From an uncultured delta proteobacterium (GTDB taxonomy: Bacteria; Myxococcota_A; UBA9160; SZUA-336), in assembly GCA_963704165.1 (NCBI GenBank), contig CAVPHD010000001.1:96001-160000 (forward strand): a stretch of DNA of 64,000 bases, in the 5' to 3' direction. The stretch's first letter is position 1; every line of letters starts with the position of its first letter. This document shows positions 16,258 through 35,156 of the stretch, one piece after another. The position numbers and the translations under genes are program-made. The notes beneath the pieces are model-generated. The model had not been told where the DNA came from. It made no database searches and was given only the letters and a program-made list of their open reading frames with translations.

Positions 16258-16270
16258 GCACGGAGGCTTC

Positions 16271-17035: not shown

Positions 17036-18354
17036 GAGGCACGGCCGCCGAGCTCGCCTTCGCGCGCCACTTCGAGGCGCCGCGCGCAGAGCGCGAGGCG
17101 CGCGAGCCGGCCTGGCTCGGGCGATTCCGGGCCGAGGCATTCGGAGCATTCGAGGCGCAAGGGCTGCCGACGACCCGGCTCGAGGCCTGGCGCTTCACGT
17201 CGCTCGCCGATCTCGAGCCGCTCACGATCGGCGTCTCCGCGGATCGCGTCGCTTCGGAAACCGTGCTCGGACCCTCCTCGATCGAAGTCGGCCCTGCACA
17301 CCGGCTGGTGTTCGTGAACGGGCGGTATTCGTCGGCGCTCTCGGCGGTGTTCCCGGTCCCGGCGGGCTGCCGCGTCAGTCCGCTCTCGACGGTGCTGGCG
17401 ACCGATCCGGGCGCGGTCGAGCGCACGCTCGCGGACGCCGCGGACGCGAAGACGCGCCCGTTCGTGGCCCTGAACTCCGCGCTCTTCGACGACGGCGTCT
17501 TCGTCGAGCTGGCCGAAGGAGTGACGCTCGACCGGCCGGTGCATGCGATCTTCGTGCAGACCGGTGCGGGCGAGCCGATCGCCGCGCACGTGCGAACGCT
17601 GATCTCGGCAGCTGCGGGCAGCCGCGCGCTCGTCGTCGAGCACCACCACGGCGAAGCGCCCCGATCCGACGTGACGAACGCGGTGACGGAGATCCGCGTC
17701 GGCGAGGCGGCCACCGTCGATCACGTCGTCGTGCAGGAGCTACCCGACCGGAGCACGCTGTTCGCGGCCGTCATCTCGCGGCAAGACGCGGGGAGCCACC
17801 TCGGGCTGCACTCGCTCGCGCTAGGCGCTTCGCTCGCCCGCGTGGAGTTCGAGAGCCGGCTCGAAGGAGAAGGGGCGGAGCTCGACATGAACGGGCTCTA
17901 CCTCGGACGCGCGGCGCAACACATCGACCATCACACGACGATCGACCACGCCGTGGGGCGCACGACCAGCCGTGAGCTCTTCAAGGGCGTGCTCGACGAG
18001 CGCGCGCACGGAGTGTTCCACGGCCGGGTCCGCGTGCGGCCGGATGCCCAGAAGATCAGCGCCGATCAGACCAATCGCACGCTGCTCCTCTCCGATGCTG
18101 CGAAGATCAACAGCAAGCCGCAGCTCGAGATCCATGCCGACGACGTGAAATGCAGTCACGGCGCGACGATCGGCCAGCTCGACGATGCGCAGCTCTTCTA
18201 CCTGCGCGCGCGCGGCCTCGATCTGGAGGCAGCCCGCGCGCTGCTCACGGCCGCCTTCGCCAGCGAGGTGCTCGCGCGGCTGCCGTCGGAGACGCTGCGT
18301 ACGTCGGCCGAGAACGCGTTGCTCGCCTGGCTGCCGCGAGGCGGCACGTCGTGA
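17032..18354 (+). CDS. sufD: Fe-S cluster assembly protein SufD
   Basis: EAWRFT, KPQLEIHADDVKCSHGAT and LFYLRARG motifs. Confidence 0.96.
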   Translation: MRGTAAELAFARHFEAPRAEREAREPAWLGRFRAEAFGAFEAQGLPTTRLEAWRFTSLADLEPLTIGVSADRVASETVLGPSSIEVGPAHRLVFVNGRYSSALSAVFPVPAGCRVSPLSTVLATDPGAVERTLADAADAKTRPFVALNSALFDDGVFVELAEGVTLDRPVHAIFVQTGAGEPIAAHVRTLISAAAGSRALVVEHHHGEAPRSDVTNAVTEIRVGEAATVDHVVVQELPDRSTLFAAVISRQDAGSHLGLHSLALGASLARVEFESRLEGEGAELDMNGLYLGRAAQHIDHHTTIDHAVGRTTSRELFKGVLDERAHGVFHGRVRVRPDAQKISADQTNRTLLLSDAAKINSKPQLEIHADDVKCSHGATIGQLDDAQLFYLRARGLDLEAARALLTAAFASEVLARLPSETLRTSAENALLAWLPRGGTS

Positions 18355-19604
18355 CGACCGCGGCGGAAACGTCCCCGACCCGTCGCACGCTCGACGTCGA
18401 AGCGCTGCGCAAGCAGTTTCCGATCCTCGCGCGGCAGGTGCACGGAAAGCCGCTCGTCTACCTGGACAGCGCGGCCTCGAGTCAGAAACCCGCGTGCGTG
18501 ATCGAGTCGATCGCCGACTACTACGGACGCTATCACTCGAACGTGCATCGGGGCGTGCACACGCTCTCCGAAGAGGCGACGAGCGCCTACGAGCGCGCGC
18601 GCGCAAAGGTGCAGCTCTTCCTTCGCGCGACCTCGCCACGCGAGATCGTCTTCGTGCGCGGAACGACCGAGGCGATCAACCTCGTCGCGCAGGCATGGGC
18701 GCGTCCGAGGCTCGTCCCGGGTGACGAGGTGCTCGTGACCGCACTCGAGCACCACTCGAATCTGGTGCCCTGGCAGATCGTCTGCGAACAAACGGGCGCG
18801 AAGCTCGTCGTCGCGCCAATCGACGAGCGCGGGGACGTGCCCCGCGAGGAGTACGTGCGGAAGTTGTCCAAGCGCACGCGCGTGGTCGCGCTCGCGCAGG
18901 TTTCGAACGCGCTCGGCACCGTCCTGCCGATCTCGGAGTTCTCGCGCCTCGCGAAACAGGTCGGAGCGACCGTGGTCGTCGACGGCGCCCAGGGTGTTCC
19001 GCACCTGCCCGTGGACGTCGGCGATCTCGGTTGCGACTTCTACGCGTTCTCGGGTCACAAGATGTACGCACCGACCGGGATCGGCGCCCTCTTCGGACGG
19101 CTCGATCTCCTCGACGAGATGGAGCCATGGCAGAGCGGCGGCTCGATGATCCGCAACGTGACGTTCGAGAAGACGACCTTCGCGCCTCCGCCCGAGCGTT
19201 TCGAGGCCGGCACTCCGAACATCGAGGGAGCGATCGGCCTCGGCGCCGCGATCGATTTCCTCGAACAGCTCGATCTCGAGGCCGTTCACGCGCACGAGGC
19301 GGATCTGGTCGAATACGCGAGCGCGAAGCTCGAGGCGATTCCGGGCGTTCGACTGATCGGCACCGCGCGCGACCGCGTGGGCCTCGTGTCGTTCGTCGTC
19401 GGAGACGTGCACGCTCACGACGTCGGCACGATCCTCGACGGCGAAGGCATCGCCGTGCGCGCGGGACACCACTGCGCACAGCCCGTGATGGATTACTTCG
19501 AGGTGCCCGCGACCGCGCGCGCCTCGTTCGCTGTCCACAACGGACGCGACGACGTCGACCGACTCGTTGCCGGCGTGCAGCGGGTGCTGGAGATCTTCGC
19601 CTGA
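18351..19604 (+). CDS. sufS: Cysteine desulfurase SufS
   Basis: YLDSAASSQKP, EHHSN, SGHK and RAGHHCA motifs. The GTG start overlaps the sufD stop. Confidence 0.96.
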   Translation: MTTAAETSPTRRTLDVEALRKQFPILARQVHGKPLVYLDSAASSQKPACVIESIADYYGRYHSNVHRGVHTLSEEATSAYERARAKVQLFLRATSPREIVFVRGTTEAINLVAQAWARPRLVPGDEVLVTALEHHSNLVPWQIVCEQTGAKLVVAPIDERGDVPREEYVRKLSKRTRVVALAQVSNALGTVLPISEFSRLAKQVGATVVVDGAQGVPHLPVDVGDLGCDFYAFSGHKMYAPTGIGALFGRLDLLDEMEPWQSGGSMIRNVTFEKTTFAPPPERFEAGTPNIEGAIGLGAAIDFLEQLDLEAVHAHEADLVEYASAKLEAIPGVRLIGTARDRVGLVSFVVGDVHAHDVGTILDGEGIAVRAGHHCAQPVMDYFEVPATARASFAVHNGRDDVDRLVAGVQRVLEIFA

Positions 19605-20056
19605 TGTCGGACCTGCGCGACCTGTACCAGGAGGTCATCCTGGATCACACGAAGCACCCGCGGAACTTCGGGACGCTCGAGCGCGCGACGCATCGCGCCC
19701 AAGGGCACAACCCGCTGTGCGGCGATCAGCTCGCGCTCTTCGTCGAGGTCGAAGACGGGCGGCTGCGCGACGTTCGCTTCGCCGGCAAGGGCTGTGCGAT
19801 CTCGACGGCCTCGGCCTCCTTGTTGACCGAGGCCGTGAAGGGCAAGAGCACCGACGAAGCACACGAGCTTTTCGCGCGCTTCCACCGGGTGGTGACGACG
19901 CCCTCCGACGAGCCCGTGGACGTGTCCCTGCTCGGCAAGCTCGCGGTACTCGCGGGCGTGCGCGAGTTCCCGATGCGCGTGAAGTGCGCGAGTCTGGCGT
20001 GGCACACGCTCGAGGCGGCACTCGCCGGTCGAGCCGACCCGGTGACAACGGAGTAG
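19604..20056 (+). CDS. sufU: SUF system NifU-family protein SufU
   Basis: LYQEVILDH, NPLCGD, GCAIS and RVKCA motifs; TGATG overlap with sufS. Confidence 0.95.
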   Translation: MSDLRDLYQEVILDHTKHPRNFGTLERATHRAQGHNPLCGDQLALFVEVEDGRLRDVRFAGKGCAISTASASLLTEAVKGKSTDEAHELFARFHRVVTTPSDEPVDVSLLGKLAVLAGVREFPMRVKCASLAWHTLEAALAGRADPVTTE

Positions 20057-20059
20057 CAG

Positions 20060-20398
20060 ATGAGTACCGATGCGAGTTGCAATGTGAAGCCGGGACCCGA
20101 GAGCCTGCGCGAGAGCGTGATCGAGGTGCTGCGCAGCATCTTCGACCCGGAAATTCCGGTGAACATCTACGAGCTCGGCTTGGTCTACGGCGTCGACGTC
20201 GACGAAGAGAACCACGTTCGCGTGCGCATGACGCTCACGTCGCCGATGTGTCCGGTCGCCGAGAGCATGCCGCCCGAGGTCGAGCAGAAGATCCGTCAGA
20301 TTCCCGGCGTCGCGCACGCCGAGGTCGACCTCACCTGGGAGCCGACCTGGAACCCGTCGATGATGTCGGAGGCGGCGAAGCTTCAGCTCGGGTTCTGA
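20060..20398 (+). CDS. DUF59 / SufT-like Fe-S assembly protein
   Basis: DPEIPVNIYELGL, MTLTSPMCP and MMSEAAKLQLG motifs. Confidence 0.92.
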   Translation: MSTDASCNVKPGPESLRESVIEVLRSIFDPEIPVNIYELGLVYGVDVDEENHVRVRMTLTSPMCPVAESMPPEVEQKIRQIPGVAHAEVDLTWEPTWNPSMMSEAAKLQLGF

Positions 20399-20405
20399 GC
20401 CGAGT

Positions 20406-20861
20406 ATGAGTCCGACGGTCGCTTGGCGTGCGCTCCGTGTCGCCGGCTTCGTGTGCCTCACCGGGTGTCTCGACTTCCACTCTCGTGCCGTCGAGGAGAC
20501 TCGCACAGGACTTCTCGGGCTCGAGGGTCGGGAGCTGCGCGACTGTCTCGGCATCGTCTCGGATTTCGAGATCGACGGCGACATCGAGCGCCAAACCTAT
20601 CGCTTCGAGCGCGATGATCCATCCGACGACGGCGCCGGCGCGGGCGCCCTCGGCGGCGTCGCGATCGGCGGCCGTCCGGAGGTCGATCGACGTCACGACC
20701 CGCACGGCTTCCCGATCGACCGGCCAGATCAGTCGTACTGTCAGCTCGACTTCGAGCTCACGCGGGGCCGCGTCACGCGAGTTCTCGCGCACGGTCGGAC
20801 ACGCGAGGGCATGAACGCGGACGCGACCTGCATGCTTCGCGCGCAGCGTTGCCTTCCGTAG
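20406..20861 (+). CDS. Hypothetical lipoprotein
   Basis: Lipobox LTGC and four further Cys; directly follows the suf operon. Confidence 0.65.
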   Translation: MSPTVAWRALRVAGFVCLTGCLDFHSRAVEETRTGLLGLEGRELRDCLGIVSDFEIDGDIERQTYRFERDDPSDDGAGAGALGGVAIGGRPEVDRRHDPHGFPIDRPDQSYCQLDFELTRGRVTRVLAHGRTREGMNADATCMLRAQRCLP

Positions 20862-21102: not shown

Positions 21103-22092
21103 TTGGGGATCCGCGTCTCTGCGCGGAACTGGATCGCGTGCTGCGCGTGGGCCGCCGTCTGCCTGCTCGCTGCTGGAGAGGCTCGCGCGCTCGGCACGCC
21201 GGCCGGCACTCCGATCGCGAACACGGCGACCGTCAGCTACGAGATCGCCGCGAGCGCGTACACGCAGAGCGCGACGGCGGTGTTCGCGGTCGACGAGCGG
21301 ATCGACGTCGTCGTCACCTGGCAGGATGCGGCGGCGGTGCTGGTCGCACCCGCGGACCTCGACCGCGTGATCACGTTCCTGATCACGAACACGGGCAACG
21401 GCGCCGAGACCTTCTCGCTCGCCGTCGATCCGCTGCTCGCGGGCGACCAGTTCGATCCGGTGAACGCGCGCGTGTACATCGACGCGAACGACTCGACGAC
21501 CTACGAGGCGGGCGTCGATCCCCTGTACCAGCCGGGCGTGAATGATCCGCTGCTCGCCGCCGACGCCGCGCGACTCGTCTTCGTGCTCGCCGACATTCCC
21601 GCTGCCGCCCTGAACGGAGAGCGAGGCGACGCGGAGCTCCGGGCGACTTCGCTCACGGGCAGCGTCACCGGCGCGGTGGTTCCGGGTGCGGGCGATCTCG
21701 GGACCGACGCGGTGATCGGCGGCGGCACGAGCGCGATGAGCGGAAGCTACCTGGTCGCCGACCTGATCGCCGCGATCGCCAAGTCGGCCGTGGTCTCCGA
21801 CACCGGCGGCGGTAGCACGCCCGCGCCGGGAGCGACGATCACCTACACGCTGCTCGTCACGACGAGCGGAACGGGCACGGTCGACAACCTGGTCATCACC
21901 GATCCGCTGCCCCCGTTCACCAGCTACGTCCCCGGCTCGCTCACGCTGAACGGCTCCGCGCAGAGCGATGCCGCGGACCTCGATGCCGGCGACGTGGGCG
22001 GCACGACACCCAATCAAGTCACCGTCGCGCTCGGGAACGTGGCCGGCGGCTCTCTCCCCCAAACCATCACGTTCGCAGTCACGATCGATTAG
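21103..22092 (+). CDS. Secreted DUF11-domain protein (putative pilus subunit A)
   Basis: Signal peptide ending ARA, N-terminal GTPAGTPIANTATVSY, and a C-terminal DUF11 (IAKS..PGATITYTL..ITDPLP..YVPGS..TITFAVTID). TTG 21103 follows GGGAGAG; the ORF extends back to 21067. Confidence 0.88.
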   Translation: MGIRVSARNWIACCAWAAVCLLAAGEARALGTPAGTPIANTATVSYEIAASAYTQSATAVFAVDERIDVVVTWQDAAAVLVAPADLDRVITFLITNTGNGAETFSLAVDPLLAGDQFDPVNARVYIDANDSTTYEAGVDPLYQPGVNDPLLAADAARLVFVLADIPAAALNGERGDAELRATSLTGSVTGAVVPGAGDLGTDAVIGGGTSAMSGSYLVADLIAAIAKSAVVSDTGGGSTPAPGATITYTLLVTTSGTGTVDNLVITDPLPPFTSYVPGSLTLNGSAQSDAADLDAGDVGGTTPNQVTVALGNVAGGSLPQTITFAVTID

Positions 22093-22103
22093 GAGGGAAC
22101 GAA

Positions 22104-22598
22104 ATGAAGAACGCAATCGCACTGGCACTGACCGTATTGCTCCCAGCGTGGAGCGCGCATGCGATCGAGAGCGCGGGGAATCCCGCGGTCGAGATCGCGA
22201 TCACCGCAGAGGTCGAAGTCACGATCAAGACCGAGGACGGACGCGAAGAAGTGAAGCGCGTACCCGCAGCGAAGGTACCACCGGGTGAGGCGGTGATCTT
22301 CACGTTGCACGCGAAGAACAACGGCGAGAAGCCGGCGAACGACGTGATCGTGACCGACCCGATCCCCGAGCACATGGACTACGTGGACGGATCGGTGAGC
22401 GAGGGCGGAGCGCGAGTGACGTTCTCCGTCGATGGCGGAAAGAGCTTCGCGGCCAAGGAGAAGCTGAAGGTTCGCGGTGAGGACGGCGCGCTTCGTGCGG
22501 CCCTCGCTACCGACTTCACGCACATCCGCTGGCAGCTCGAGACGCCGCTTGCGCCCGGTGAAGCTCGAGAGGTGAGCTTCCGCGCACGCGTGGAGTGA
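22104..22598 (+). CDS. Small secreted DUF11-like protein (putative cap or chaperone)
   Basis: AGGAGG RBS, signal peptide (AHA), PGEAVIFTL..NNGEKPANDVIVTDPIP..YVDGS..LAPGEAREVSFRARVE. Confidence 0.85.
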   Translation: MKNAIALALTVLLPAWSAHAIESAGNPAVEIAITAEVEVTIKTEDGREEVKRVPAAKVPPGEAVIFTLHAKNNGEKPANDVIVTDPIPEHMDYVDGSVSEGGARVTFSVDGGKSFAAKEKLKVRGEDGALRAALATDFTHIRWQLETPLAPGEAREVSFRARVE

Positions 22599-22698
22599 GA
22601 GAAGAGATTCCCCCCCCTTGAAAGGGTGGAAGCGTGAGACACACGCTCAAGTGTCTATTCGAGTTGAGTTGAGTTGGACATACAGCAAGGAGAAGGCA

Positions 22699-23763
22699 AT
22701 GTTGAGGCATGACTTGAAACGACTGGCAAGTGCGCTTGCCACCGCTGCGCTCTTGTGGAGCACGGCGGGGACGGCATCGGCGGTCGGCGCCGACGCTGGC
22801 ACCGTCATCTCGAACACCGCCACCGTGGACTACAGCGTGAACGCCGTAGTCCAGCCCACGGTGGCCAGCGTAGCCGTCGACTTCGTCGTCGATCGGCTGA
22901 TCGACCTGACGGTGACGGCCGTCCCGGTGACCTACGTCGCCGTGACGCCGAGCTCCGACGGGGCGTTCCTGTTCACACTGACCAACACCAGCAACGCCGA
23001 GCTCGGATTCGACCTCAGCGCGGCGAACAACGCAACGGACCCCTTCGGCGGCACGGACAACTTCGATCCGAGCGCGCTGACCACGGTCGTGGACGCGGGC
23101 GTGCTCGGGACCTACGAGCCGCTCGTCGACGTCGCCACGACCGTCGATTCGCTCGCAGAGGACGGCTCGGTGGGCGTGTGGGTGGTCGCGACGATCCCCG
23201 GTGGCCAGGCCAACGCGGACATCGCGGCGGTCACGCTGACTGCGACGGCGCGCGAGACGACGGCCAACGGCGGCGGCGCCGTGGTCGAGCAGGCCAATCC
23301 GGAGGATCCGGCAACCATGGAGACCGTGTTCGGCGACGGCGCGGGTGACACCGACGCCGCGAATGCGGCCGACTTCTCGGACAGCGGCGCGTTCCAGGTG
23401 GAGTCCGCCGACGTGACGATCACGAAGACCGAGACGCTGATCAGCGACCCGGTGAATGGCGCCGCGCCCAACGCTCGCCACATCCCGGGTGCGATCGTCG
23501 AGTACGTGGTGACGGTGACCAATGACGCCGCTTCCGCGCTCTCGGCGACGACGCTGACCATCAGCGACGTGCTTCCCGGTGACGTGACGTTCGAGCCGGA
23601 TACCTATGGCGTCGGATTCGGCATCGACCTCGACTCGGTCGCGCAGTCGAATGCCGCGGATCTCGACCAGGGGTCCGAGGCGGCGGGCACCGTGACGGTG
23701 ACCGTGCCGTCGCTCGCGCCGGGGGCTTCCGCGGTGATCACCTTCCGGGTGTCCGTGGACTAG
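22699..23763 (+). CDS. Secreted DUF11-domain protein (putative major pilus subunit C)
   Basis: AAGGAG RBS, signal peptide (ASA), N-terminal GADAGTVISNTATVDY, and a C-terminal DUF11 (ITKT..PGAIVEYVVTVTN..ISDVLP..LAPGASAVITFRVSVD). Paralogue of 21103-22092. Confidence 0.9.
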   Translation: MLRHDLKRLASALATAALLWSTAGTASAVGADAGTVISNTATVDYSVNAVVQPTVASVAVDFVVDRLIDLTVTAVPVTYVAVTPSSDGAFLFTLTNTSNAELGFDLSAANNATDPFGGTDNFDPSALTTVVDAGVLGTYEPLVDVATTVDSLAEDGSVGVWVVATIPGGQANADIAAVTLTATARETTANGGGAVVEQANPEDPATMETVFGDGAGDTDAANAADFSDSGAFQVESADVTITKTETLISDPVNGAAPNARHIPGAIVEYVVTVTNDAASALSATTLTISDVLPGDVTFEPDTYGVGFGIDLDSVAQSNAADLDQGSEAAGTVTVTVPSLAPGASAVITFRVSVD

Positions 23764-23778
23764 CGCTCGAATCGCCAA

Positions 23779-26700
23779 GTGGTGGGTCCCCTCCCCCGAA
23801 GGTCGCGGCACGTCGAGTGCCCGCGCGCCGGCTCACGCGCCGGTGTGACGGGAGACTTGCGTCCGCGAGCCGCGACGGAGAACCCACCGGACCGCACCCG
23901 TGCGGTTCGCAAGTCGTGCCTCAACGAGCCGGCTGGGTCGGGAATTCCCCGATTCAGCCGGCTCTGCGAGGTGCTGGCGCTTCTGCTGCTCGCGTTCGCC
24001 CTGCTTCCGTCGAACGCACGCGCGCAGACACCGGTGGGGACTGCGATTCCCAATACCGGTTACGCGACCTACGACATCGGGAGCACGGTCGGAATCGTCC
24101 GTCCGTCGAACACGCTCGTGATCACGACCGCGGTCGTGAGCTCCGGTTCGAGCCTGGAGTTCATGCGCTACGCACCCGGAGCACCGGGTTCGACCAGTTA
24201 CGGTGTCACCGCCACCGCTTGCTTCAGTGGCGGCAGTTTCAATCCGCTGCCGGCGCCCAACGCGTACGGTGGCGGCGCGATCAATCTGGCGAGCGTCGAG
24301 CTGATCCCGACGCCTGCCTATCATCCCGGCGAGCCGATCTTCGTGCGGCTCGTCGACGCGGACCAGAATCGGAACTCGACCCTGGTCGAATCCGTTCTCG
24401 TCGCGCTCTCCGCGCCCGGCGTCGCCGATCTCGAGCAGCTTCGGCTCTTCGAAACCGGCGTCGCGACGGGCGTCTTCGTCGGCTACGTGCCGTCCGCGGC
24501 ACCCCCGGCACCCGCCAACGACTGCGTGCTCGCCGCCCCTTCGGGTCAGACGGTTCTCGGCAATTACGTCGACGCATTCGATGCGAGTGACTCGGACTCC
24601 GACACCGCATGGATCGACCCCGAGAGCCGGGTCTTCGACAGCGCGACCGGTGCTCCGATCGACTTCGCGGTCGTCACCCTGATCGACGAGATCACCGGGC
24701 TCCCCGCGACGGGGATCCTGGGAGACGATGGCGTGAGCACGTTCCCCGCCACCCTGACGACCGGTGGCTCGGTCACCGATGGCGGCGGGCAGATCTACAA
24801 CTTCGGTCCGGGCGGCTATCGCTTCCCGGTGGTTCCCGTCGGCAGCTACCGATTGCAGGTCGCGCCGCCCTCGACGTACGGCTTTCCGAGCGCGGTCCCC
24901 GATGTCGTGCTGCAGGCGCTTCCGGGCGCGCCGTTCGCGCTCGTCGTCGGTTCGCGCGGAGAGGTCTTCGACGTCATCGCGGGCCCGACCTTCGAGATCG
25001 ATCTGCCGCTCGACGCGGCATCGTCCGCGGGCTTCATCTCGATCCGCGCCAGCCGCGACGTCGTTTCGATCGGCGAGCACTTCCAGTTCGACGTCCGCGT
25101 CGAGAATCCCGGCGTGGCGGACGCTCCGCTCGGGGTCGAAGTGACCGTGGTGCTTCCGCCCGGGGTCAGGTTCACGCCGCAGTCGGTCCGGATCGACGAC
25201 CAGATCCAGCCCGACCCGCTGATCTCGCCCGACGGGCGCACGCTCACGTGGACGCTCCCTGCGACCCTTGCCCCGGTCGTGACGCACATCCGTTTCACCG
25301 TGAAGGTCGAGCCGAGCGTTCGAGCGGGACTCGTCCGCACGACCGCACGCGCGGAGGCGCTCGGCGGATCGATCACCGAGGATGCGGTCGCGACGGTACG
25401 CGTCGAGGAGGATCTCGGCGCGAACAGCGCCTACGTGGTGGGTCGCGTGTCGGCCGGCCACTGCGACACGGACGACTTCGCGGGTGAAGCCGTCCCGGGG
25501 GTACGCGTCTACCTCGAAGACGGAACCTACTCCGTCACCGACGCGAACGGCTACTACCACTTCGCAGGACTCCGAAGTGGCGCCCACGTCGTACAGATGG
25601 ACGTGCAGAGCCTGCCCGGGTTCTACGAGCCGCTCCCGTGCGCCAACGCCGAGGGGCATGCCTTCGCGGGCCGGCCGTTCTCGCAGTTCGTGGACGTCCA
25701 AGGTGGAACGCTGTGGCGCAGCGACTTCCGCGTGCAGCTGCGACCGCGTCGCGAGGGCGGAATCAGTCAGCGACTCGAGAGCCAGCTCGAGGGCGACACG
25801 ATCCGCTATCAGCTCGCGCTGCGCGGCAACGGCGTCGCGGTGCGAAACGCGCGCGCGGTGGTGATGCTGCCCGAAGGCGTGGAGTTCGTGCCGGGCAGCG
25901 CGCGCAACGCGGGTGCTCCGATCGCAGATCCCGAGACCAAGAACGGGGTGGTCACCTTCCGACTCGGAGAGCTGAGCTCGGAGGAGTGGTCGATGGACCT
26001 CGCGCTCGACGCGATCGTCGACGGGCGGGCCGAGCGCGAGCTCGAGACATCGTCCGTGGTCATGTTCGAGACACCGGTCGAGAAGCTCGCCAAGACACCC
26101 GCCGCGAAGACGCGCCTCCACGGCGAGTCGAGCTCGGGCAGCGGACTCAAGCTCGTCGAGACGCTGGGGCTTCGACCGGGAGAGGAGTGGCAGACGAAGA
26201 CCGCGCCGGAAATCGATGCCGCGCCGCCCAAACCCGGCGTCTACAACAAGATCTGGCTCGAGAAGGCGACGCCCGGACTCGAATGGCTCTCACCCGAACC
26301 CGGATTCGCGGCGGCGATCGCGAGCGTGAACATCGCGATCAAGCACGCGCCCGGAACGACCATCGAGCTGGTACAGAACGGGGTGGCCGTACCGAAGTTC
26401 AACTTCGAAGGTGCGTTCTCGAACACCGGCAAGACCGTATCGCTCTCGCGTTGGCGCGGTGTGGACCTGGTCGATGGCGAGAACAGCTTCGTCGCACGCG
26501 AGCTCGACGCTTCGGGGAACGAGATCGCGCGACTGGATCGCTCGCTCCACTACGCCGGACCGCCGTTCCGCGCCGTGCTCGTGCCCGAGCTGTCGCGGCT
26601 CGTCGCCGACGGGCGAACGATCCCCGTGATCGCGGTGCGCTTCACCGACGAGGACGAGAAGCCCGCACGCGAGGGACAGGTCGGCACGTACGAGATCGAC

Positions 26701-29481
26701 GCGCCGCATCGACCGAATCGCGACGCGTCGGCCGGGGAGCTGCGACGCCAGGCGGGGCTCGCGCCCGAGTCGCCGAGCTACGTGATCGGCCGCGACGGTG
26801 TGGCTCGGATCGAGCTCGCGCCCACGACCCGTTCGGGGCGCGTCGGCCTTCGCTTCGCGTTGGCGGGACGCCAGCGCAAAGAGCTGCACCCCTGGCTCGA
26901 GGCGGAGGCTCGCGATTGGGTGCTCGTCGGGCTGACGGGCGGCACGCTTCTGCACAGCTCCGTCTCCGAACACACCGAGAGCCTCGTGCCGTCCGACGTC
27001 GAGGACGGCTACGACCTCGATCGCGGCACCACCGTCTTCGCGAAGGGCCGGATCAAGGGCTCGTGGCTGCTCACCGCCGCCTACGATTCGCAGCGGGAAT
27101 CGCGCGAGTCCTCGAGCGACCTCGATCGGGCCGCGCTCGAGGGGGGCCTCGATCCGAATCGCTATTACACGCTCTACGGTGACGCGACGACGCAGGGCTA
27201 CGAGGCCCCGAGCCAGCGCAAGCTCTACCTGAAGCTCGAACGCAAACAGTTCTACGCGCTCTTCGGTGACTTCCAGACCGGCCTCACCGTCACCGAGCTC
27301 TCGCGCTACAGCCGCGCGCTGAACGGATTCCACACCGAGTACGACGGCGACCACGTGTCCGTGAATGCCTTCGGCACCGACACGAGCCAGGCCTTCGTTC
27401 GCGACCAGATACGGGGTGACGGCACGTCGGGCCTGTACCGACTCTCGCGCTCCGGGATCGTGCTGAACAGCGAACGCGTCACGATCGAGATCCGGGATCG
27501 TTTCCACGGTGAGCAGGTGATCTCTACGGAGGGCCAGACGCGCTGGACCGACTACAACATCGACTACACCTCGGGAACGATCTTCTTCAAGCGTCCGATC
27601 CCGAGCACCGGCGAGGGCTTCAATCCCGTGTACATCGTCGTCGAGTACGAGTCCGACGACGACTCCGACCAGGAGCTGAACGGTGGCGGTCGCGCAGCCG
27701 TGAAGCTCCTGGACGACAACGTGGAGCTCGGGGCGTCGCTGATCCACGAAGGCACGGTGGGACAGACGTCGAGCCTGTACGGCAGCGACTTGCGGATCGA
27801 TCTCGACGGCGCGACGAGCCTGCGCGCCGAGTTCGCGCAGACGCGCTCCTCGCTGCTCGGCTCGAATGCCGACTCGAGCGGCGCGGCCTGGCTCGCCGAG
27901 CTGTGGCGACGCGACAAGGATCTCGACTCGCGAATGTACTGGCGTGAGCAGCGCCCGGGCTTCGGCCTCGGTCAGCAGAGCTCGAGCGAAACGAACATGC
28001 AGCAGCTCGGAATCGACGCACGCTACCGTTGGAGCGACACGCTCGCGCTCTCCGGCGAAGTGTTTCGCCAGGTCGATGTCGCCTCCGACGCGAGGCGCGA
28101 TCTCTTCGAGCTGCGCGCAGATCACCACGAAGGACCGTTCGGCGGTTACGGCGGCGTTCGCTTCGCGCACGACGTCTTCTCCGATGGAAGCAAGAGCTCG
28201 TCCCCACAGCTTCTCGGCGGCGGCAGCTACACGACCTACCAGAACCGGCTCAAGCTGCGCGCGGACTCGGAGATCACCGTCTCGGGCGACGAGAGCCTCG
28301 ACTTCCCGACGCGTTTCCTCGTCGGCGCCGATTTCCTGCTCCTGCCCGAGCTCACCGTCTTCGGCGAGGAGGAGCTCACGCTCGCGAGCGAACGGAGCAC
28401 GGCCTCGACGCGTGTCGGCCTTCGCACCAGCCCGTGGCGCGGCGGGCAGGCGACGGCCGCGATCGGCCAACGCAGTCAGCAGGACAGCGAGCGTCTCTTC
28501 GGAACGCTCGGACTGCTCCAGACCTATCAGCTGACCGACGCGCTCAGCTTCGACTTCGGGATCGACAACTCCGTGACGCTGAAGGGCGACGACCTGGCGC
28601 CGACGCAGGTCTCCCCGTTCGCGCCGGGACAGCCGGTCGCGAACGGCCTCTCGGGAAATCCGCAGGGAGACGACTTCACGTCGCTCTCCATCGGCACGAC
28701 GTACGCGCAGGACGTCTGGGCCGCGAACCTCCGCCTCGAGACGCGGTTCGGCCAGGTTCAAGACAAGTGGAGCATCACCGCCGGCGCCTATCGCGAGCTC
28801 GAGGCGGGAATCGGTGTCGCCGTCCGGGCGGAGTTCTTCGACTCCAGCGGCTCGAGCCCGTCGCTGACGACCGGACCCAGCTCGAGCACCGGACCGGTCT
28901 ACACCGCCGACGGCACGCTCCGTCCGAACACCGCATTCGACGGGATCGAATCGCTCGGCCGTCTGCAGCTGAGCGGCGTCTACCGACCGATCGGGAGCCG
29001 CTACACGCTGCTCGAGTCCCTCGAAATCCGCAGTGAGCGACTCGACTACGACGTCTTCCAGAGCCGCGCGACGCGGATCGTCAACAACATGAACCTGAAC
29101 GTGAAGCTCGACCGGAAGACCCAGGCCTCGCTGCAGTACGGCGCGAAGTACCTGTTCGAGCGTATCGACGGGTTGAACCTCGACGGCTACACCGACGTCA
29201 CCGGACTCGAGATCCGGCGCGATCTCTTCGGCAGCTGGGACATCGGCGGCCGCGTGGGAATGCGCCACTCCTGGACCGACGGCAACATCGAGGAGCTGTA
29301 CAGCGTCTCGCTCGGGTACGTGCTGATGAGGAACCTTTGGGTGAGCGCCGGCTACAACTGGGGTGGCTACAGCGATCGCGACTTCTCGGCGGGCAACTGG
29401 ACCACGCGCGGCCCGTTCGTCTCGTTCCGCTACAAGTTCGACCAGGAGACGGTCAAGGAGCTGCTCGACTGGGCGGAGTAG
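23779..29481 (+). CDS. Very large exported protein: Ig-like/DUF11/SdrD-B-like domains plus a predicted C-terminal outer-membrane beta-barrel (putative assembly platform)
   Basis: Signal peptide ending NARA (true start probably between 23845 and 23971). Two DUF11-like domains, GVRVYLEDGTYSVTDANGYYHF, and about 800 C-terminal residues of amphipathic beta-strands ending GPFVSFRYKFD. Confidence 0.85.
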   Translation: MVGPLPRRSRHVECPRAGSRAGVTGDLRPRAATENPPDRTRAVRKSCLNEPAGSGIPRFSRLCEVLALLLLAFALLPSNARAQTPVGTAIPNTGYATYDIGSTVGIVRPSNTLVITTAVVSSGSSLEFMRYAPGAPGSTSYGVTATACFSGGSFNPLPAPNAYGGGAINLASVELIPTPAYHPGEPIFVRLVDADQNRNSTLVESVLVALSAPGVADLEQLRLFETGVATGVFVGYVPSAAPPAPANDCVLAAPSGQTVLGNYVDAFDASDSDSDTAWIDPESRVFDSATGAPIDFAVVTLIDEITGLPATGILGDDGVSTFPATLTTGGSVTDGGGQIYNFGPGGYRFPVVPVGSYRLQVAPPSTYGFPSAVPDVVLQALPGAPFALVVGSRGEVFDVIAGPTFEIDLPLDAASSAGFISIRASRDVVSIGEHFQFDVRVENPGVADAPLGVEVTVVLPPGVRFTPQSVRIDDQIQPDPLISPDGRTLTWTLPATLAPVVTHIRFTVKVEPSVRAGLVRTTARAEALGGSITEDAVATVRVEEDLGANSAYVVGRVSAGHCDTDDFAGEAVPGVRVYLEDGTYSVTDANGYYHFAGLRSGAHVVQMDVQSLPGFYEPLPCANAEGHAFAGRPFSQFVDVQGGTLWRSDFRVQLRPRREGGISQRLESQLEGDTIRYQLALRGNGVAVRNARAVVMLPEGVEFVPGSARNAGAPIADPETKNGVVTFRLGELSSEEWSMDLALDAIVDGRAERELETSSVVMFETPVEKLAKTPAAKTRLHGESSSGSGLKLVETLGLRPGEEWQTKTAPEIDAAPPKPGVYNKIWLEKATPGLEWLSPEPGFAAAIASVNIAIKHAPGTTIELVQNGVAVPKFNFEGAFSNTGKTVSLSRWRGVDLVDGENSFVARELDASGNEIARLDRSLHYAGPPFRAVLVPELSRLVADGRTIPVIAVRFTDEDEKPAREGQVGTYEIDAPHRPNRDASAGELRRQAGLAPESPSYVIGRDGVARIELAPTTRSGRVGLRFALAGRQRKELHPWLEAEARDWVLVGLTGGTLLHSSVSEHTESLVPSDVEDGYDLDRGTTVFAKGRIKGSWLLTAAYDSQRESRESSSDLDRAALEGGLDPNRYYTLYGDATTQGYEAPSQRKLYLKLERKQFYALFGDFQTGLTVTELSRYSRALNGFHTEYDGDHVSVNAFGTDTSQAFVRDQIRGDGTSGLYRLSRSGIVLNSERVTIEIRDRFHGEQVISTEGQTRWTDYNIDYTSGTIFFKRPIPSTGEGFNPVYIVVEYESDDDSDQELNGGGRAAVKLLDDNVELGASLIHEGTVGQTSSLYGSDLRIDLDGATSLRAEFAQTRSSLLGSNADSSGAAWLAELWRRDKDLDSRMYWREQRPGFGLGQQSSSETNMQQLGIDARYRWSDTLALSGEVFRQVDVASDARRDLFELRADHHEGPFGGYGGVRFAHDVFSDGSKSSSPQLLGGGSYTTYQNRLKLRADSEITVSGDESLDFPTRFLVGADFLLLPELTVFGEEELTLASERSTASTRVGLRTSPWRGGQATAAIGQRSQQDSERLFGTLGLLQTYQLTDALSFDFGIDNSVTLKGDDLAPTQVSPFAPGQPVANGLSGNPQGDDFTSLSIGTTYAQDVWAANLRLETRFGQVQDKWSITAGAYRELEAGIGVAVRAEFFDSSGSSPSLTTGPSSSTGPVYTADGTLRPNTAFDGIESLGRLQLSGVYRPIGSRYTLLESLEIRSERLDYDVFQSRATRIVNNMNLNVKLDRKTQASLQYGAKYLFERIDGLNLDGYTDVTGLEIRRDLFGSWDIGGRVGMRHSWTDGNIEELYSVSLGYVLMRNLWVSAGYNWGGYSDRDFSAGNWTTRGPFVSFRYKFDQETVKELLDWAE

Positions 29482-30248: not shown

Positions 30249-32150
30249 CTATGCGAAAGAACTCGCGAACCCCGCACGGGCGAGCTCCGCGCGCAGCGCA
30301 CCGCCGGGCGTGAGCAGCCGGATCAGCGCGCGCACGGCCGGTCGTTGCAGGCGGCTCTTCGGCACGACGAAGTCGTAGTGCTCGCTGCGAAGCGGCCGAA
30401 ACCGGAGTCCGGACTCCCGCGCGATCGTCTCGATCGTCACGCCCCAGTCCGCGCGACCTTGCGCGATGGCCGCCGCAACCGCGTGATGCGAGCGAGGCTC
30501 GTACGCGTAACCGTCGGGGCGGCGAGAGCCGAGCAGGCCGTCGATCAGCACGCGTGTGCCACTGCCGCGGTTGCGGTTCACCATGCGCAGACTCGCATCG
30601 GCGACGAGCGCCTCGGTCGGACGCCGCTCGTCGTCGCGCGTGACCACGCCTTGCATGCGCAGGTAGCCCGGAACGAGCGCGAGCGTATCGTCGAGAAAGG
30701 GCGTGTTGTAGCAGTCGGACTTCGGATCGAGCAGGTGGGCGGGCGCGACGTCGCACTCGCCGCGCCGCGCCGCTTCGACCCCGCCGAGGGATCCGACCGC
30801 GAGCAGCTTCACCGTGAAGCCCTCCGCGAGCAGTGCGCGCGCGATCAGATCGAGCCCGGTGCAGTGGCTGCCGATCACGACCAGATCCGCCGGCGCGAGC
30901 GTGGGGCCGAGCAGCGTGACCTCGACCTCGGCGCCCGCTTCGACGATCTCGAGATTCCGCTCCAATCGCACGAAGCCATCGGCACGGCTCCAGGTCGTCA
31001 CGCTGCCGCTGCCCTTCCCCATCGGATACGCGCCGAGCCCGCCATCGGCTCCACGGACGAGACCGACGAGCAGATACTCGAGTCGTCCCCGTTCGGTGAG
31101 GGTGCGCAGCGCGAGATTCGCCTTCACGGTTTCGCGTTCGAGCTCCGGCGTGCCCGCGAGCCTGCGCAGAACCGGCGCGACGAACTCGTGAAACGTGAAG
31201 ACCGCCGAGGTGGGAAATCCGGGCAGGATCACGACGGGCTTTCCGCGCTGCGCCGCGAGGCAGATCGGTTTGCCGGGCTTCAGCGCGACGCCGTGGACGA
31301 GAATGCCGGGCTCGAGTCCCGCGACGACCCGGTAGGAGAGATCGCCTTCCCCCTTCGAGGTTCCTCCCGAAAGCACGACGGCGTCGCACTCCGCGAGTCC
31401 GCGGTCGAGCGCGCGCCGCAACGCCGCCTCCTCGTCGCGAAACGCGCCGAAGAAGACCGGCTCGCCGCCGAGCTCGCGGACGGCATCTGCGATCATGCGG
31501 CCGTTCGAATCGAAGACCAGTCCGGGCCGCATCGGCTCGCCCGGCGCGATGATCTCGTCGCCGGTGGAGATCACCGCGACGCGCGGCTTGCGCACCACGT
31601 CGATGCGGCAGATGCCGATCGCCGCGAGCACACCCGTCTCGCGCGAAGAGAGTCGCGTGCCTGCGAAGAGCACCGTTTCGCCGAGGCCGATGTCCGTTCC
31701 CGCGAACGCCACCGCAGCGCCGGGCACGCGTGCCGCGCGTACGACGACCATCCTCCCGCCATCCTCGATGTCGGTCAGCTCGACGGGCACGACGGCATCG
31801 GCGCCGCGCGGAAGCATGCCGCCGGTCGCGATCGAAGTCGCCGTTCCCGGATCGACGCTGAGTACGGGAGTCACGCCGGTCGGGATCGTCTCGTCGTTCA
31901 ATCGCAAGCGCACCGGTTCGAGCTCGCTCGCACCGAACGTGTCCTCGGCGCGGATCGCGAAGCCGTCCATGTTCGAACGGTCGAAGCTCGGCACGTCGAC
32001 GGGTGCGCGCACGTCCGCGGCGAGCACGCGGCCGAGCGCCGCGTCGAGCGCAACCTCCTCGGCAGCGAGTCGGTCGAGCGTGAGCGCCGCGTGCCAGCGC
32101 GTTTCGGCGACGTCGCGGTCGAGAACCTCGAGAAACTGCTCCTGCTTCAC
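30249..32150 (-). CDS. Molybdopterin biosynthesis MoeA fused to a periplasmic-binding (PBP/LysR-substrate) domain
   Basis: FDRSNMDGFA, STGDE, SGGTSKG and LPGFP, then GSHC, VGSLGG, VNRNRGSGTR and GRADWG. Confidence 0.92.
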   Translation of the reverse strand: MKQEQFLEVLDRDVAETRWHAALTLDRLAAEEVALDAALGRVLAADVRAPVDVPSFDRSNMDGFAIRAEDTFGASELEPVRLRLNDETIPTGVTPVLSVDPGTATSIATGGMLPRGADAVVPVELTDIEDGGRMVVVRAARVPGAAVAFAGTDIGLGETVLFAGTRLSSRETGVLAAIGICRIDVVRKPRVAVISTGDEIIAPGEPMRPGLVFDSNGRMIADAVRELGGEPVFFGAFRDEEAALRRALDRGLAECDAVVLSGGTSKGEGDLSYRVVAGLEPGILVHGVALKPGKPICLAAQRGKPVVILPGFPTSAVFTFHEFVAPVLRRLAGTPELERETVKANLALRTLTERGRLEYLLVGLVRGADGGLGAYPMGKGSGSVTTWSRADGFVRLERNLEIVEAGAEVEVTLLGPTLAPADLVVIGSHCTGLDLIARALLAEGFTVKLLAVGSLGGVEAARRGECDVAPAHLLDPKSDCYNTPFLDDTLALVPGYLRMQGVVTRDDERRPTEALVADASLRMVNRNRGSGTRVLIDGLLGSRRPDGYAYEPRSHHAVAAAIAQGRADWGVTIETIARESGLRFRPLRSEHYDFVVPKSRLQRPAVRALIRLLTPGGALRAELARAGFASSFA

Positions 32151-33403
32151 GACGTCCTCTCGTCGGCGCGCGATTCCTCGTCGTAGAGCAGCACCTCGAC
32201 CTCGGCGCCCTCGGGCATGCCCTCGAGACCGCGCGGCACGATCACGGCGCCGTCGGCGCGAACCGTCGAAGACAGGATCGAAGCGCCCGCCGTCGCGACC
32301 GGCACCACGCGCCCGCCGTCGAAGGCGACGCGCACGTAGTCGGTGCGGCCGACTTCGGAGCTGATCTTGCGCGCGAGCAAGGCCCGCACGCGCCGATGCG
32401 GCCAGACGCGGGACCGCCCCCCGAGCGCGCGGATCGTCGGCCCCGCGAAGAACTCGTACGCGCACAGACAGCTGACCGGGTTGCCTGGCAAGAGGAAGAC
32501 GAGCGCGTCGCCGATCCGGCCACCGCCCGCGGGGCTCGACGGCCGCATCGATACGCCGTGGAAGAGCAGCTCGCCGTGCGCGGCCAGGAGCCGCGGCGCG
32601 TGGTCTTCGGCGCCGACGCTCGAGCCGCCCGAGACCAGCACGACGTCGGCGTCTCCCGACGTGAGCACTTCGGAGATTCGCTCGGGCTGATCCGGGATCA
32701 GCTCGAACGGGAGCAGCGCGCCACCGTCGCGCGCGACCAGCGCGCGGAGCACGACGGAGTTCGAATCGACGATTCTGACGCCGTCCGGTGTAGATCCGGG
32801 AGCCAGAAGCTCGTCACCCGTGACGACGAGCCGCACGCGTGGCCTTCGCACGCAGAGAACCGATCCGGTGCCGATCGAGGCGAGCAGGCCCGCATCCTGC
32901 GGACGGATCCGGCGCCCCGCGTGCAGGACGACCTCGCCCGCGCGGATGTCTTCGCCGACGGCGCCGACGTGCTTGCGCGGAGCGACCGCTTCGTGGACTC
33001 GGACGAGCGCGCCGCGCTCCTCGCAGACCTCGGCCTTCGCCACCGCGTCCGCACCGTCGGGGATCGGCGCGCCGGTCATGATGCGCACCGCCTCGGCCGT
33101 ACCCACGCGTCCGCCGAACGCCCGGCCGGGATAGGCCTCGCCGACCAGCTTGAACTCGAGCGTCGCGTATTCGGATGCGCCGAACGTGTCTTCACCGCGA
33201 AGCGCGTAGCCGTCCATCGCCGAGCGCGCGAAGCCCGGCACGTTCACGCGCGATGCGACTTCCTGGGCGAGCACGCGTCCGGCGCACTCGAGCAGCGGCA
33301 CCGGTTCCTCGCCGAGGCTCGTGCAGGTGGACACGAGCAGGTGATCGACCTGCTCGACGTCCATCCGCTCCGCGAAGCCCCGCATCCGGACGTCGCGACT
33401 CAT
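32147..33403 (-). CDS. moeA: Molybdopterin metal insertase MoeA
   Basis: RSAMDGYA, IMTGAPIPDGADAV, TGDEL, SGGSSVG and LPGNPVS motifs. Confidence 0.92.
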   Translation of the reverse strand: MSRDVRMRGFAERMDVEQVDHLLVSTCTSLGEEPVPLLECAGRVLAQEVASRVNVPGFARSAMDGYALRGEDTFGASEYATLEFKLVGEAYPGRAFGGRVGTAEAVRIMTGAPIPDGADAVAKAEVCEERGALVRVHEAVAPRKHVGAVGEDIRAGEVVLHAGRRIRPQDAGLLASIGTGSVLCVRRPRVRLVVTGDELLAPGSTPDGVRIVDSNSVVLRALVARDGGALLPFELIPDQPERISEVLTSGDADVVLVSGGSSVGAEDHAPRLLAAHGELLFHGVSMRPSSPAGGGRIGDALVFLLPGNPVSCLCAYEFFAGPTIRALGGRSRVWPHRRVRALLARKISSEVGRTDYVRVAFDGGRVVPVATAGASILSSTVRADGAVIVPRGLEGMPEGAEVEVLLYDEESRADERTS

Positions 33404-33434
33404 CGCGGTACCCGGGCTGCAGCCGGATCGGTCG

Positions 33435-35156
33435 TCAGCCAGCCGCCTTGGTCGTGAAGAGATTCTCTCGCGCCGGCTTGCGTACCTTGGCGTCGGCGAT
33501 GACCGCGGCGGGAACGTCGAAGACGACCTTCGCCGGACCGATCGCGTCCTCCTTCATGCACGCCGGGAGCACGTCGTCGGCAGCCGTGAACCCGGCGCGG
33601 CGATTGAACTCCCACTCGTCCTCGAGAATCTGCCAGCCCTGATCGGCGATCTCCTCACGCGAAACGTCGCGCCCGACGAAGTGGCCGTAGTACCCACGGA
33701 TGTCGTCGAGCGTCGGCTGGATGAACTGGCAGAAGCCCGATGAATCGCAGACCGCGTTCACGAGCTGAACTTCCTGAGAGGCGACGGCGAACTGGTCGGG
33801 CGGAAGGCCCGGGTTCACGATCAGGCCCGCGGTGTGATCCGCGCCCTGGGCGCTCGTCGCGTACGTGACTCCGGTGGCCTTGAGTGGCCGCGGATCCCAA
33901 GCGGGAATCGCCTGGTTTCGAACCACCGGAACGCGGTGGTGCCCCGTGTGCTTGCCGGTCGCGGCGCAGCCGTTGCCGATCACCTTGCCGAGCTCGGTGC
34001 CCTTGCCGACGTCGGCGACGAGCTTCTTCATCGCGGCGGCGTCGCCCCAGTTCATCTTGCCCGCGTCCATCAGCACGCCGATCGCGGCGCCGGTCTCGAT
34101 CGTGTCGAGTCCGACCTCGTCGCAGAGGCGATCGAGATCCGCGACGTCTTCCCAGCTCGTGACCGCACAGTTCGCGCCGAGCAGCGTCAGCGTTTCGAAC
34201 TCGAGCGCGCTCGTCTTGTACTTGCCCTCGGCGTCGTGAACGATGTTCGAGCAGCGCACGATGCAGCCCGTGAGGCAGTTGTGCATGCCGCCGCCGCGCT
34301 TGTCGAAGCTCTCGACGATCCGAGCACCGTCGAGGTTCGCCGCGTCGGGCGACTGCCCGAAGACGCGGTTCTTGTACGGGAACGTCTGCAGCATGTTCGC
34401 GATCGGCACGATCGACGACGTGCCGGTCTTGAACATCTGCGGACCGTCGAGGTACGCCTTCGTGTACTTCTTCGCGAGCTCGTTGAAATCGGACTTGTTC
34501 TTGGGCTCGCGCACGCGCGCCTTGCCGCGCTCGATCGCGACGAACTTCAGGCGCTTCGAACCCATCACCGCGCCCACGCCGCCGCGCGCCGCCTGACGCG
34601 CGGGGTGTCGGCTGTCCTGGTCGGTGCACGCGACGGACGCGCCGGTCAGGAGCTGCTCGCCCGCGGGACCGATCGTGATGAACGAGGCGTTCTTCGTGTA
34701 CTTCTTCGCGAGCTCCTCGCAGGTCGCGTAGTTCCACTTCATCTTGAGGTGGTCGGCCGGAACGATTCGCACGCCCGCGTCGTCGCACTCGAGACCGTAG
34801 AGCGCCGCCTTGTCCTTCGGCTGTCCCTTCACGACGATCGCGCGGATCCCGAGCTTGGCGAGATCCTGTCCGGGATTTCCGCCCGAATTCGCTTCCTTGA
34901 TGCCACCGGTCAGCGGGCTCTTGCAGCCGACGCTGATCCGTCCGGAGGTCGGCGCGGACGTTCCAGAGAGCACGCCGGGCGCGAGCACGAGCAGGTTCTC
35001 GGGACCGAGCGCGTCGCACTTCGCGTTCTTCAGATCGCGCAGGAGGATCTTCGCCGTGAGCCCGCGGCCTCCGAGCAGCTCCCATTCCTTGGGCAGGTTC
35101 TCGCTCGACACTTTCATGCTGCCCATGTCGACGTGAACGATCTTGTCGCCTTCCAT
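33435..35156 (-). CDS. Aldehyde:ferredoxin oxidoreductase (tungsten AOR family)
   Basis: LGGRG, KSPLTGGIKEANSGG, GVGAVMGSK, CLTGCIVRC, EFET, CDEVGLDTIE and DSSGFC motifs. Confidence 0.93.
   Translation of the reverse strand: MEGDKIVHVDMGSMKVSSENLPKEWELLGGRGLTAKILLRDLKNAKCDALGPENLLVLAPGVLSGTSAPTSGRISVGCKSPLTGGIKEANSGGNPGQDLAKLGIRAIVVKGQPKDKAALYGLECDDAGVRIVPADHLKMKWNYATCEELAKKYTKNASFITIGPAGEQLLTGASVACTDQDSRHPARQAARGGVGAVMGSKRLKFVAIERGKARVREPKNKSDFNELAKKYTKAYLDGPQMFKTGTSSIVPIANMLQTFPYKNRVFGQSPDAANLDGARIVESFDKRGGGMHNCLTGCIVRCSNIVHDAEGKYKTSALEFETLTLLGANCAVTSWEDVADLDRLCDEVGLDTIETGAAIGVLMDAGKMNWGDAAAMKKLVADVGKGTELGKVIGNGCAATGKHTGHHRVPVVRNQAIPAWDPRPLKATGVTYATSAQGADHTAGLIVNPGLPPDQFAVASQEVQLVNAVCDSSGFCQFIQPTLDDIRGYYGHFVGRDVSREEIADQGWQILEDEWEFNRRAGFTAADDVLPACMKEDAIGPAKVVFDVPAAVIADAKVRKPARENLFTTKAAG

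Follow-up and report, generated by a model that had tools for sequence, protein, structure and literature searches.

The window analysed here, i.e. the whole stretch of 64,000 nucleotides, was shown to contain four co-oriented genes, A to D, all located on the + strand (Table 1). Their coordinates in the earlier note were confirmed by an ORF check of the window, and the letters quoted there for the N-terminal motifs of A, C and D, and for the C-termini of A, B and C, match the sequence. Signal peptides of A-D were assigned by eye. Proteins A and C, previously described as paralogues, were found to share 34 % identity across 345 columns (E 1e-22), and the assignment of all four proteins to DUF11 (PF01345) was upheld, with each exceeding the Pfam cut-off of 24.6 bits (A 27.6, B 42.3, C 24.8 and D 26.2). 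The possibility that the locus consists of chance ORFs was rejected on the basis of its conserved gene order (see below). The closest named records to C belong to Myxococcota (77 % identity in C), and the host is accordingly taken to be a probable member of this group with two membranes.

The upstream flank (14809-20398) holds what we take to be a suf iron-sulfur cluster operon, while the downstream flank (30249-35156, - strand) presumably encompasses two MoeA-like genes and an aldehyde:ferredoxin oxidoreductase-like gene, both flanks being read by eye. This reading of the flanks gave no sign of a functional link with the A-D operon. An ORF of 151 aa just upstream of A (20406-20861) carries a lipoprotein-like signal and is without a Pfam or NCBIfam match.

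Table 1. Features of the A-D locus (window positions) and the unlinked host gene encoding protein E
Feature	Position	Strand	Details and basis
Gene A, putative linker-type accessory subunit	21103..22092	+	329 aa; TTG start after GGAG; ORF and Pfam
Protein A, regions			Signal peptide 1-29; plug hairpin 30-66; middle Ig-like domain; socket (truncated DUF11) 222-329
Protein A, triad	21220-21222 (Asn40); 21781-21783 (Lys227); 21901-21903 (Asp267)	+	
Gene B, socket-only protein without reactive Lys	22104..22598	+	164 aa; DUF11 E 1e-10
Gene C, likely major subunit	22699..23763	+	354 aa; ORF, Pfam and model
Protein C, regions			Signal peptide 1-28; plug hairpin 29-66; middle Ig-like domain; socket 238-354
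Protein C, triad	22813-22815 (Asn39); 23425-23427 (Lys243); 23566-23568 (Asp290)	+	
Gene D, putative platform	23779..29481	+	Longest ORF 1900 aa, start putative; long signal region, plug, stalk-like domains, predicted outer-membrane barrel
RNA hairpin between C and D plug	23916..23974	+	17-bp inner stem 23926-23964
D plug hairpin	24028..24138	+	Asn92 (24052-24054); no socket in D
D intact DUF11 and carboxypeptidase-regulatory-like domain	25024..25743	+	DUF11: residues 416-546, 25024-25416
D predicted beta-barrel	26908..29448	+	About 36-40 strands; AF2
Small beta domain inserted in D barrel after eighth strand	27418-27666	+	AF2
Gene for host protein E, unlinked	G000:C4:141515-143506 (L081:6516-8507)	- in L081	663 aa; signal peptide; reactive socket end

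A DUF11 domain divided between chains

To the intact DUF11 profile, the C-terminal domains of A, B and C were matched with probabilities of 98.0, 96.9 and 97.6, respectively. The common C-terminal stop of these proteins, to which the earlier note had drawn attention, is not due to chance, as all three end at column 95 of 131 of this profile, before the Asn-bearing strand, i.e. two strands short of a complete DUF11/CLIPPER domain. In A, the Pfam DUF11 match itself extends as far as position 93 of the 114-position profile, in C to 83 and in B to 63. The N-terminal motif shared by A, C and D was likewise found to exceed chance expectation (profile comparison probability 98.6 for A-C and 96.4 for D-C). 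These plugs are homologous to each other and resemble the two strands that the sockets lack, the direct match of plug and tail of the intact domain being weak (probability 2.6 for A and 0.4 for D, with Asn in register; 0.3 for C, out of register). The middle Ig-like domain of A and C is not of the DUF11 type; it is very acidic in both proteins and exhibits Asp-rich loops (DANDSTTYE in A) resembling calcium-binding loops, which could stiffen a fibre.

The isopeptide triad is divided accordingly, with Lys and Asp in the socket and Asn in the plug, and each of its residues was shown to be nearly invariant: N39, K243 and D290 of C are retained in 80/80, 81/81 and 81/81 homologues, and N40, K227 and D267 of A in 64/65, 68/68 and 68/69, respectively, while N92 of the D plug is kept in 54/54. 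The triad Lys (K227 and K243, respectively) is the sole lysine in mature A (300 aa) and in mature C (326 aa). Protein B, which ends on the same strand as the A and C sockets, has Lys at the triad column in none of 77 homologues, and the catalytic Asp is replaced by Asn in 62 of the 77.

The intact DUF11 domain of D served as an internal control. Across the family, its Lys, Asp and Asn are present in 48, 49 and 48 of 54 proteins, respectively, and these residues are kept or lost jointly; all three are lost in the D protein of the window, as they are in about four relatives, indicating that the lock can be lost. Neither A, B and C nor the intact D domain of the window thus holds Lys, Asp and Asn inside one complete domain, as described for CLIPPER. 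The split, the conserved triad, the gene order and the co-occurrence of the genes are the observed part of the explanation offered here. Since D encompasses a plug without a socket, and B and protein E (see below) represent sockets without a plug, only pairing in trans makes sense, and joining of plug and socket between chains is considered highly probable. Judged from the sequences, a covalent Lys-Asn bond between the chains is also quite probable.

The D protein and its predicted barrel

The barrel previously suggested for D was supported, as a prediction, by an outer-membrane barrel in the AF2 model and by fold matches. Residues 930-1900 (mean pLDDT 75) were modelled as an Ig-like domain, eight strands, the small beta insert and 31 strands, and 27 of the 45 modelled strands passed the amphipathicity cut-off. 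Outer-membrane barrels were the best fold matches, none of which was close. The match with SprA (446 aligned residues, Z 11.8, rmsd 13.9) is generic and tied with many barrels, and the matches with FimD/PapC (Z 9.5-10.1, rmsd 6.2-8.9, 281-324 residues) rank below other barrels. No sequence match to the barrel was present in the PDB, nor did SprA match D in sequence. PF00577, PapC_N and PapC_C gave no match in D (E <= 0.1) or in four full-length D homologues (E <= 0.01), and the usher family was absent from the 84 % complete host genome, the same search being positive in an E. coli control.

A search of 1.84 billion 50%-cluster representatives yielded 2,469 proteins of the D family at E <= 1e-30, and OmpA-like domains are present in some D homologues. 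A weak match to the anammox S-layer protein Kustd1514 was observed for D residues 187-314 (24337-24720; E 7e-8, 30 bits against a cut-off of 1400). As D possesses a plug and is devoid of a socket, it likely represents the terminator or anchor of a chain. Surface display through D is a well-favoured prediction.

Conservation, co-occurrence and distribution

Searching GTDB genomes with a profile of 105 C-type proteins gave 445 related stretches, and the 80 best were taken for analysis. Among these best 80 of 445 loci, and where sufficient flank was available, B was located upstream of C in 75/75 loci, D downstream in 73/73 and A before B in 65/71 (A being missing beside B in 6/71), while C was duplicated in 2/80. 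The complete order A-B-C-D, the conservation of which the earlier note had named as a test, was retained in 61 of the 66 loci concerned.

A barrel match was identified in 48 of 121 genomes of the host's class and in 11/11 others of the host's genus. When the 48 barrel-positive genomes were split by score, 28 were classed as close (27 at >=870 bits and one fragmented at contig ends) and 20 as distant. Full-length B was present in 27 of the 28 close-D genomes, as was full-length C in 27; neither occurred in the 20 genomes with a distant barrel only or in the 32 (of 73) barrel-negative genomes that were included. As the genomes counted are kin and not independent of each other, these figures represent co-occurrence and not a statistical test. 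The distant-barrel genomes yielded three weak partial B matches, two inside giant ORFs and one beside a divergent D of 2,007 aa.

Named carriers were found among Myxococcota, Alpha-, Beta- and Gammaproteobacteria, Nitrospirota, Desulfobacterales, Spirochaetales and Eisenbacteria, with further forms in a cyanobacterium and in Acinetobacter. Frameshifted pieces of D or C, reflecting assembly error or decay, were observed in L008, L009, L079, G048 and G110.

Structure predictions for C

Mature C was modelled by AF2 as two Ig-like domains (pLDDT 96.6), with a pLDDT above 90 for the plug. In the complex model of C, the N-terminal motif of one copy is placed in the C-terminal domain of another, as the earlier note had envisaged. 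This trimer model scored 0.42, compared with 0.00 for the best of three controls, and thereby lies exactly at a mark that was reached by 20/30 proteins solved as pairs and by 1/23 solved as single chains, a calibration which is only rough for the C trimer (own alignment, three copies) and which a split domain may pass easily. The runs displayed contact agreement of at least 77 % and a partner pLDDT of at least 85. The interface of the best run is formed between residues 9-39 of one copy and 207-268 of another (mature numbering), and N11, K215 and D262 all lie within it, the K215-N11 pair being absent among the 25 best pairs of the model. The trimer model supports head-to-tail binding between C copies; both this plug-in-socket contact and the D barrel are predicted.

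A fold search with C returned generic Ig domains (best Z 9.8) and no close solved fold; the CLIPPER crystal structure was not among the matches, to which no weight is attached. Sequence searches for solved relatives gave none for C or for one intact D domain. Comparison of B with solved proteins returned only GhpA (E 0.002), Asp-box proteins and AbpX (E 0.5-1), the last of which was rejected as a member of the TasA superfamily. Atlas matches were confined to unnamed or DUF11 clusters.

An RNA hairpin and other expression signals

The RNA hairpin located between C and the D plug has a predicted stability of -47 kcal/mol (z -7.1), which none of 200 shuffles attained, and the same stem with two-sided changes is present in 4/7 close loci. 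Its position renders the upstream GTG start of D doubtful. Across 48 loci, a stable hairpin follows C in 32, compared with 2 after A, 3 after B and 8 after D; in the window, the first 140 nt after C are free of a hairpin, the one described here being situated further downstream. The hairpin likely lowers D output relative to C, judging from its sequence and placement, so that C would be made in excess of D, as expected for a major subunit.

A promoter scan revealed no sigma-70 site, and a terminator scan did not rise above chance level. The hexamer TTAACC, presumably resembling a CtrA half-site, occurs upstream of A (within 230 nt on either strand) in 36/65 loci and in 16/78 after C, with an expectation of about 0.014 per 130 nt and strand, among L011-L080 and mostly in Sphingomonadales. 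Fuller CtrA-like sites were observed in 8/65 loci; TTAACC is absent upstream of A in the window.

A fifth component and single-chain relatives

The host genome encodes a further, unlinked protein, E, for which no Pfam match was obtained. An additional E-type gene is present in 25/80 loci (best 80 of 445), which together with that of the host gives 26 E-type proteins. All carry a terminal socket, with Lys in 25/26 and Asp in 24/26, and none has a plug, while their N-terminal domains vary, consisting of a beta-helix, a P-domain, or intact DUF11 or DUF7933 repeats. Several genomes encode two E-type proteins. Partial matches, putatively E-like, were obtained in about 25 of the 28 close-D genomes. 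Based on its sequence features, E is likely a tip adhesin; B was rejected as adhesive tip, E being the better fit by virtue of its reactive socket and variable N-terminal domains.

Related barrels were also found to accompany single-chain adhesins. In Phyllobacterium (L083:233-14718, NZ_CP050303.1), a protein of 3,550 aa with 25 DUF7507 (CLIPPER_2) repeats ends in a DUF11 and carboxypeptidase-like module as in D, and is followed by a related stand-alone barrel; no A-, B- or C-type gene is annotated near this pair. The barrel is labelled a TonB-dependent receptor in RefSeq, a label that looks wrong for this barrel family. Five giant ORFs of the host's class (L115:1790-17230, L116:1960-17412, L117:1490-17068, L118 and L119), of 3,761-5,192 aa, combine in a single chain stalk repeats (of DUF11 type in 4/5), the D module (only part of it in one ORF) and the beginning of a barrel distantly related to that of D. 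Homology of these fused giants is found mainly in the initial 310 barrel-region residues, and OmpA-like domains were present in the one giant ORF scanned for them. Such fused giants are common in the host's class and sometimes share a genome with the split operon.

On a plasmid from a cyanobacterium, two genes take the place of D, one encoding plug and module and the other the barrel. The module DUF11 retains Lys, Asp and Asn in 7/7 distant relatives. Genes B, A and C appear where the plug of D replaces a stalk. Since related barrels also serve tandem-DUF11 adhesins without B and C, the operon likely rebuilds a single-chain stalk from pieces. The main reason to consider export through D likely is that barrels of this family accompany CLIPPER-domain chains.

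Proposed mechanism and alternative explanations

Taken together, our preferred explanation, to which we attach fair confidence, is that the operon uses split DUF11/CLIPPER domains to make a surface fibre with covalent links between its subunits, and that the D barrel serves as both export route and anchor of this fibre. All proteins would cross the inner membrane by the Sec route, with signal peptide cleavage freeing the plug. In the periplasm, B may act as a non-reactive socket that reversibly holds plugs. Protein E would come first as tip adhesin, A would act as linker and C would repeat as the shaft, with subunits being added at the base of the fibre. At each joint, the Asn-bearing plug hairpin is predicted to complete the socket of the next subunit, with its Lys and Asp, upon which an isopeptide bond would form spontaneously. 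Entry of the D plug into the last socket would end the fibre and tie it to the pore. Such a fibre would amount to a polymer version of the single-chain tandem-DUF11 adhesins that are located beside, or fused to, related barrels. Growth order, the place of A, fibre length and the role of B are inferred from the plug and socket inventory and by analogy with chaperone-usher pili. B is likely a non-covalent guard of plugs (chaperone) or a cap, the role of guard being slightly favoured, and growth at the base is given a little better than an even chance.

The pilus-like logic built on DUF11 domains, as proposed in the earlier note, is largely supported, and sharpened in that the donated piece is a hairpin of two strands rather than a single strand. 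The isopeptide triad, the fifth, socket-only gene and the single-chain relatives had been overlooked in that reading.

The same plug-socket chemistry might also join only a few proteins (E-A-C-D) into a short, defined stalk with interchangeable adhesins and no long fibre. Finite stalks in the single-chain relatives, the widely varying N-terminal domains of E and the presence of two E-type proteins in several genomes would suit such a stalk, as would a D plug which, being fused to the pore, could end growth immediately; the self-joining of C in the model, the indication from the hairpin that C is in excess of D, the duplication of C in 2 of the best 80 of 445 loci and the dispensability of A speak against it, and we regard it as unlikely. 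A long C polymer is rather probable. Still less probable is the opposite order, in which the chain is primed by the D plug, grows by addition of subunits to the exposed plug end and is finally capped by E (or B). Plug and socket polarity permits both orders and the D plug is there from the start, but the cyanobacterial plug module is a protein separate from the barrel, as would be expected for a terminator, and chaperone-usher pili are known to grow at the base. If the opposite order holds, most of the preferred explanation stands.

Whether the joint is locked is the subject of another alternative, according to which the fibre is held by donor hairpins non-covalently and the conserved Lys, Asp and Asn are structural, without an intermolecular bond. 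The near-invariance of precisely these three residues across two chains, their joint loss in the internal domain of D and the absence of the triad from B make this very improbable, even though the bond is missing in some DUF11 domains, according to the accessible part of the CLIPPER report (10.1101/2025.04.25.650565), and bond geometry was not seen in the C trimer model. Similarly small is the chance that the subunits are self-closing monomers (circular permutation) or part of a periplasmic or envelope scaffold, with the D pore having another job. The high confidence of the plug in the C monomer model, the OmpA-like domains of some D homologues and the weak S-layer match would be compatible with such a role, and are opposed by the D plug without a socket, the B and E sockets without a plug, the intermolecular contacts of the C trimer model and the adhesin-like partners of the barrels.

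Comparison with known systems

No description of the A-D operon was found in the literature searched, which covers subscription journals and bioRxiv supplements thinly, and the system is real, widespread and apparently undescribed. Covalent polymerisation is established for sortase pili and for a small number of fibres from archaea or one-membrane hosts; no such pilus with its own exporter in two-membrane bacteria is described in the literature searched. There is, in our view, an even chance that the operon stands for a separate class of pilus, with a secretion route of its own, in bacteria with two membranes: a family of giant barrels would be dedicated to CLIPPER chains in three forms (fused chain, adhesin plus barrel, and split-domain polymer), the polymer being self-locked by isopeptide bonds, served by a dead-socket chaperone and covalently bonded at its end to the pore, in what would be a natural Tag/Catcher system. 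The system would assign a job to thousands of proteins annotated as 'DUF11' or 'hypothetical' and to barrels partly labelled TonB-dependent receptor in RefSeq, offer a plausible path between tandem-repeat adhesins and pili, and make plug-socket pairs possible new protein-ligation tags.

In the accessible parts of the sources, DUF11 (PF01345) has been renamed CLIPPER and is described as an intramolecular isopeptide domain of fibrillar adhesins (10.1101/2025.04.25.650565; PMC12617251), the crystal structure of which displays a Lys-Asn bond that, for this fold class, joins the first and the penultimate strand, with a nearby Asp as catalyst (10.1101/2025.04.25.650565). The A-D proteins share with CLIPPER the domain family, the Lys-Asp-Asn triad and the stalk role, and the crystallised adhesin is stated there to end in an OmpA-like anchor, as do single-chain relatives of the A-D locus. 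In CLIPPER, however, domain and bond reside in one chain, whereas here the last two strands, with the Asn, are carried by another protein. The words 'donor', 'complementation', 'operon' and 'barrel' occur nowhere in the text of the published CLIPPER paper. Among other DUF11 literature, PMC13297417 and PMC8779699, as far as their available text extends, mention DUF11 proteins without relevance to the operon, 10.1101/2025.08.19.671072 concerns, in its available part, single-chain grappling hooks, and the 'DUF11' text matches in the accessible portion of the tafi paper represent DUF1102 (PMC11821415).

Several polymers assembled by donor strands outside the chaperone-usher family are described in the available parts of their reports, including the archaeal threads (Saci_0406; PMC9715654), tafi (PMC11821415), AbpX (10.64898/2026.01.04.697558), Elr/WxL pili (10.64898/2026.10.17.759780) and TLP-1 (PMC11494351). 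These have other folds and envelopes, and none is described, in those parts, with DUF11 or a barrel. The threads are covalently linked, as is likely for A-D, but through an N-terminal Asp to an Asn of subunit n+2 (PMC9715654, available part), while the donor of TLP-1 reaches subunit n+4 (PMC11494351, available part). In the BsaA fibres of Clostridium perfringens, donor-strand exchange is followed by a spontaneous Asn-Lys isopeptide bond between subunits, as supported by mutations (10.1101/2024.11.04.621531, available part). Unlike A-D, BsaA is described there as a member of the TasA family with a Glu catalyst, a SipW peptidase and a one-membrane host, and without an outer-membrane barrel; A-D gave no TasA-family match (Pfam/NCBIfam), and no dedicated signal peptidase gene was seen in the flanking ORFs read by eye. 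Very large single-chain barrels comparable to D are known in SprA, the type IX translocon, and in LptD, SlpA and MtrB, the fold likeness being generic.

The reported absence of usher, PapD, sortase, prepilin and curli families was corroborated by family searches: no fimbrial Pfam match and no sortase, prepilin or Csg family was found in A-D, the C-termini are without a sorting signal, and B is a single DUF11-type domain with no PapD-family match. Membership of the chaperone-usher family was rejected, as neither usher nor PapD is present. The reference for this family is FimH-FimA-FimI with FimC and FimD, together with Pap (PMC13721041, available part). Chaperone-usher pili nevertheless resemble the A-D system in comprising an acceptor-only tip, a donor-plus-acceptor shaft, a donor-only terminator, a periplasmic helper and an outer-membrane barrel with an inserted plug domain. 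Completion of an incomplete Ig fold by the N-terminal extension of a neighbour would be common to both, for A-D by analogy and prediction. The two are unrelated in sequence, and A-D differs in its two-strand donor, two-domain subunits and likely covalent joints, in a helper that appears to be a dead acceptor rather than a strand donor, in a terminator that is part of the pore protein and in the predicted strand number of its barrel, about 36-40 as against 24 in the usher. By analogy, the A-D system would work like a chaperone-usher pilus with BsaA-type locking, while being a member of neither family.
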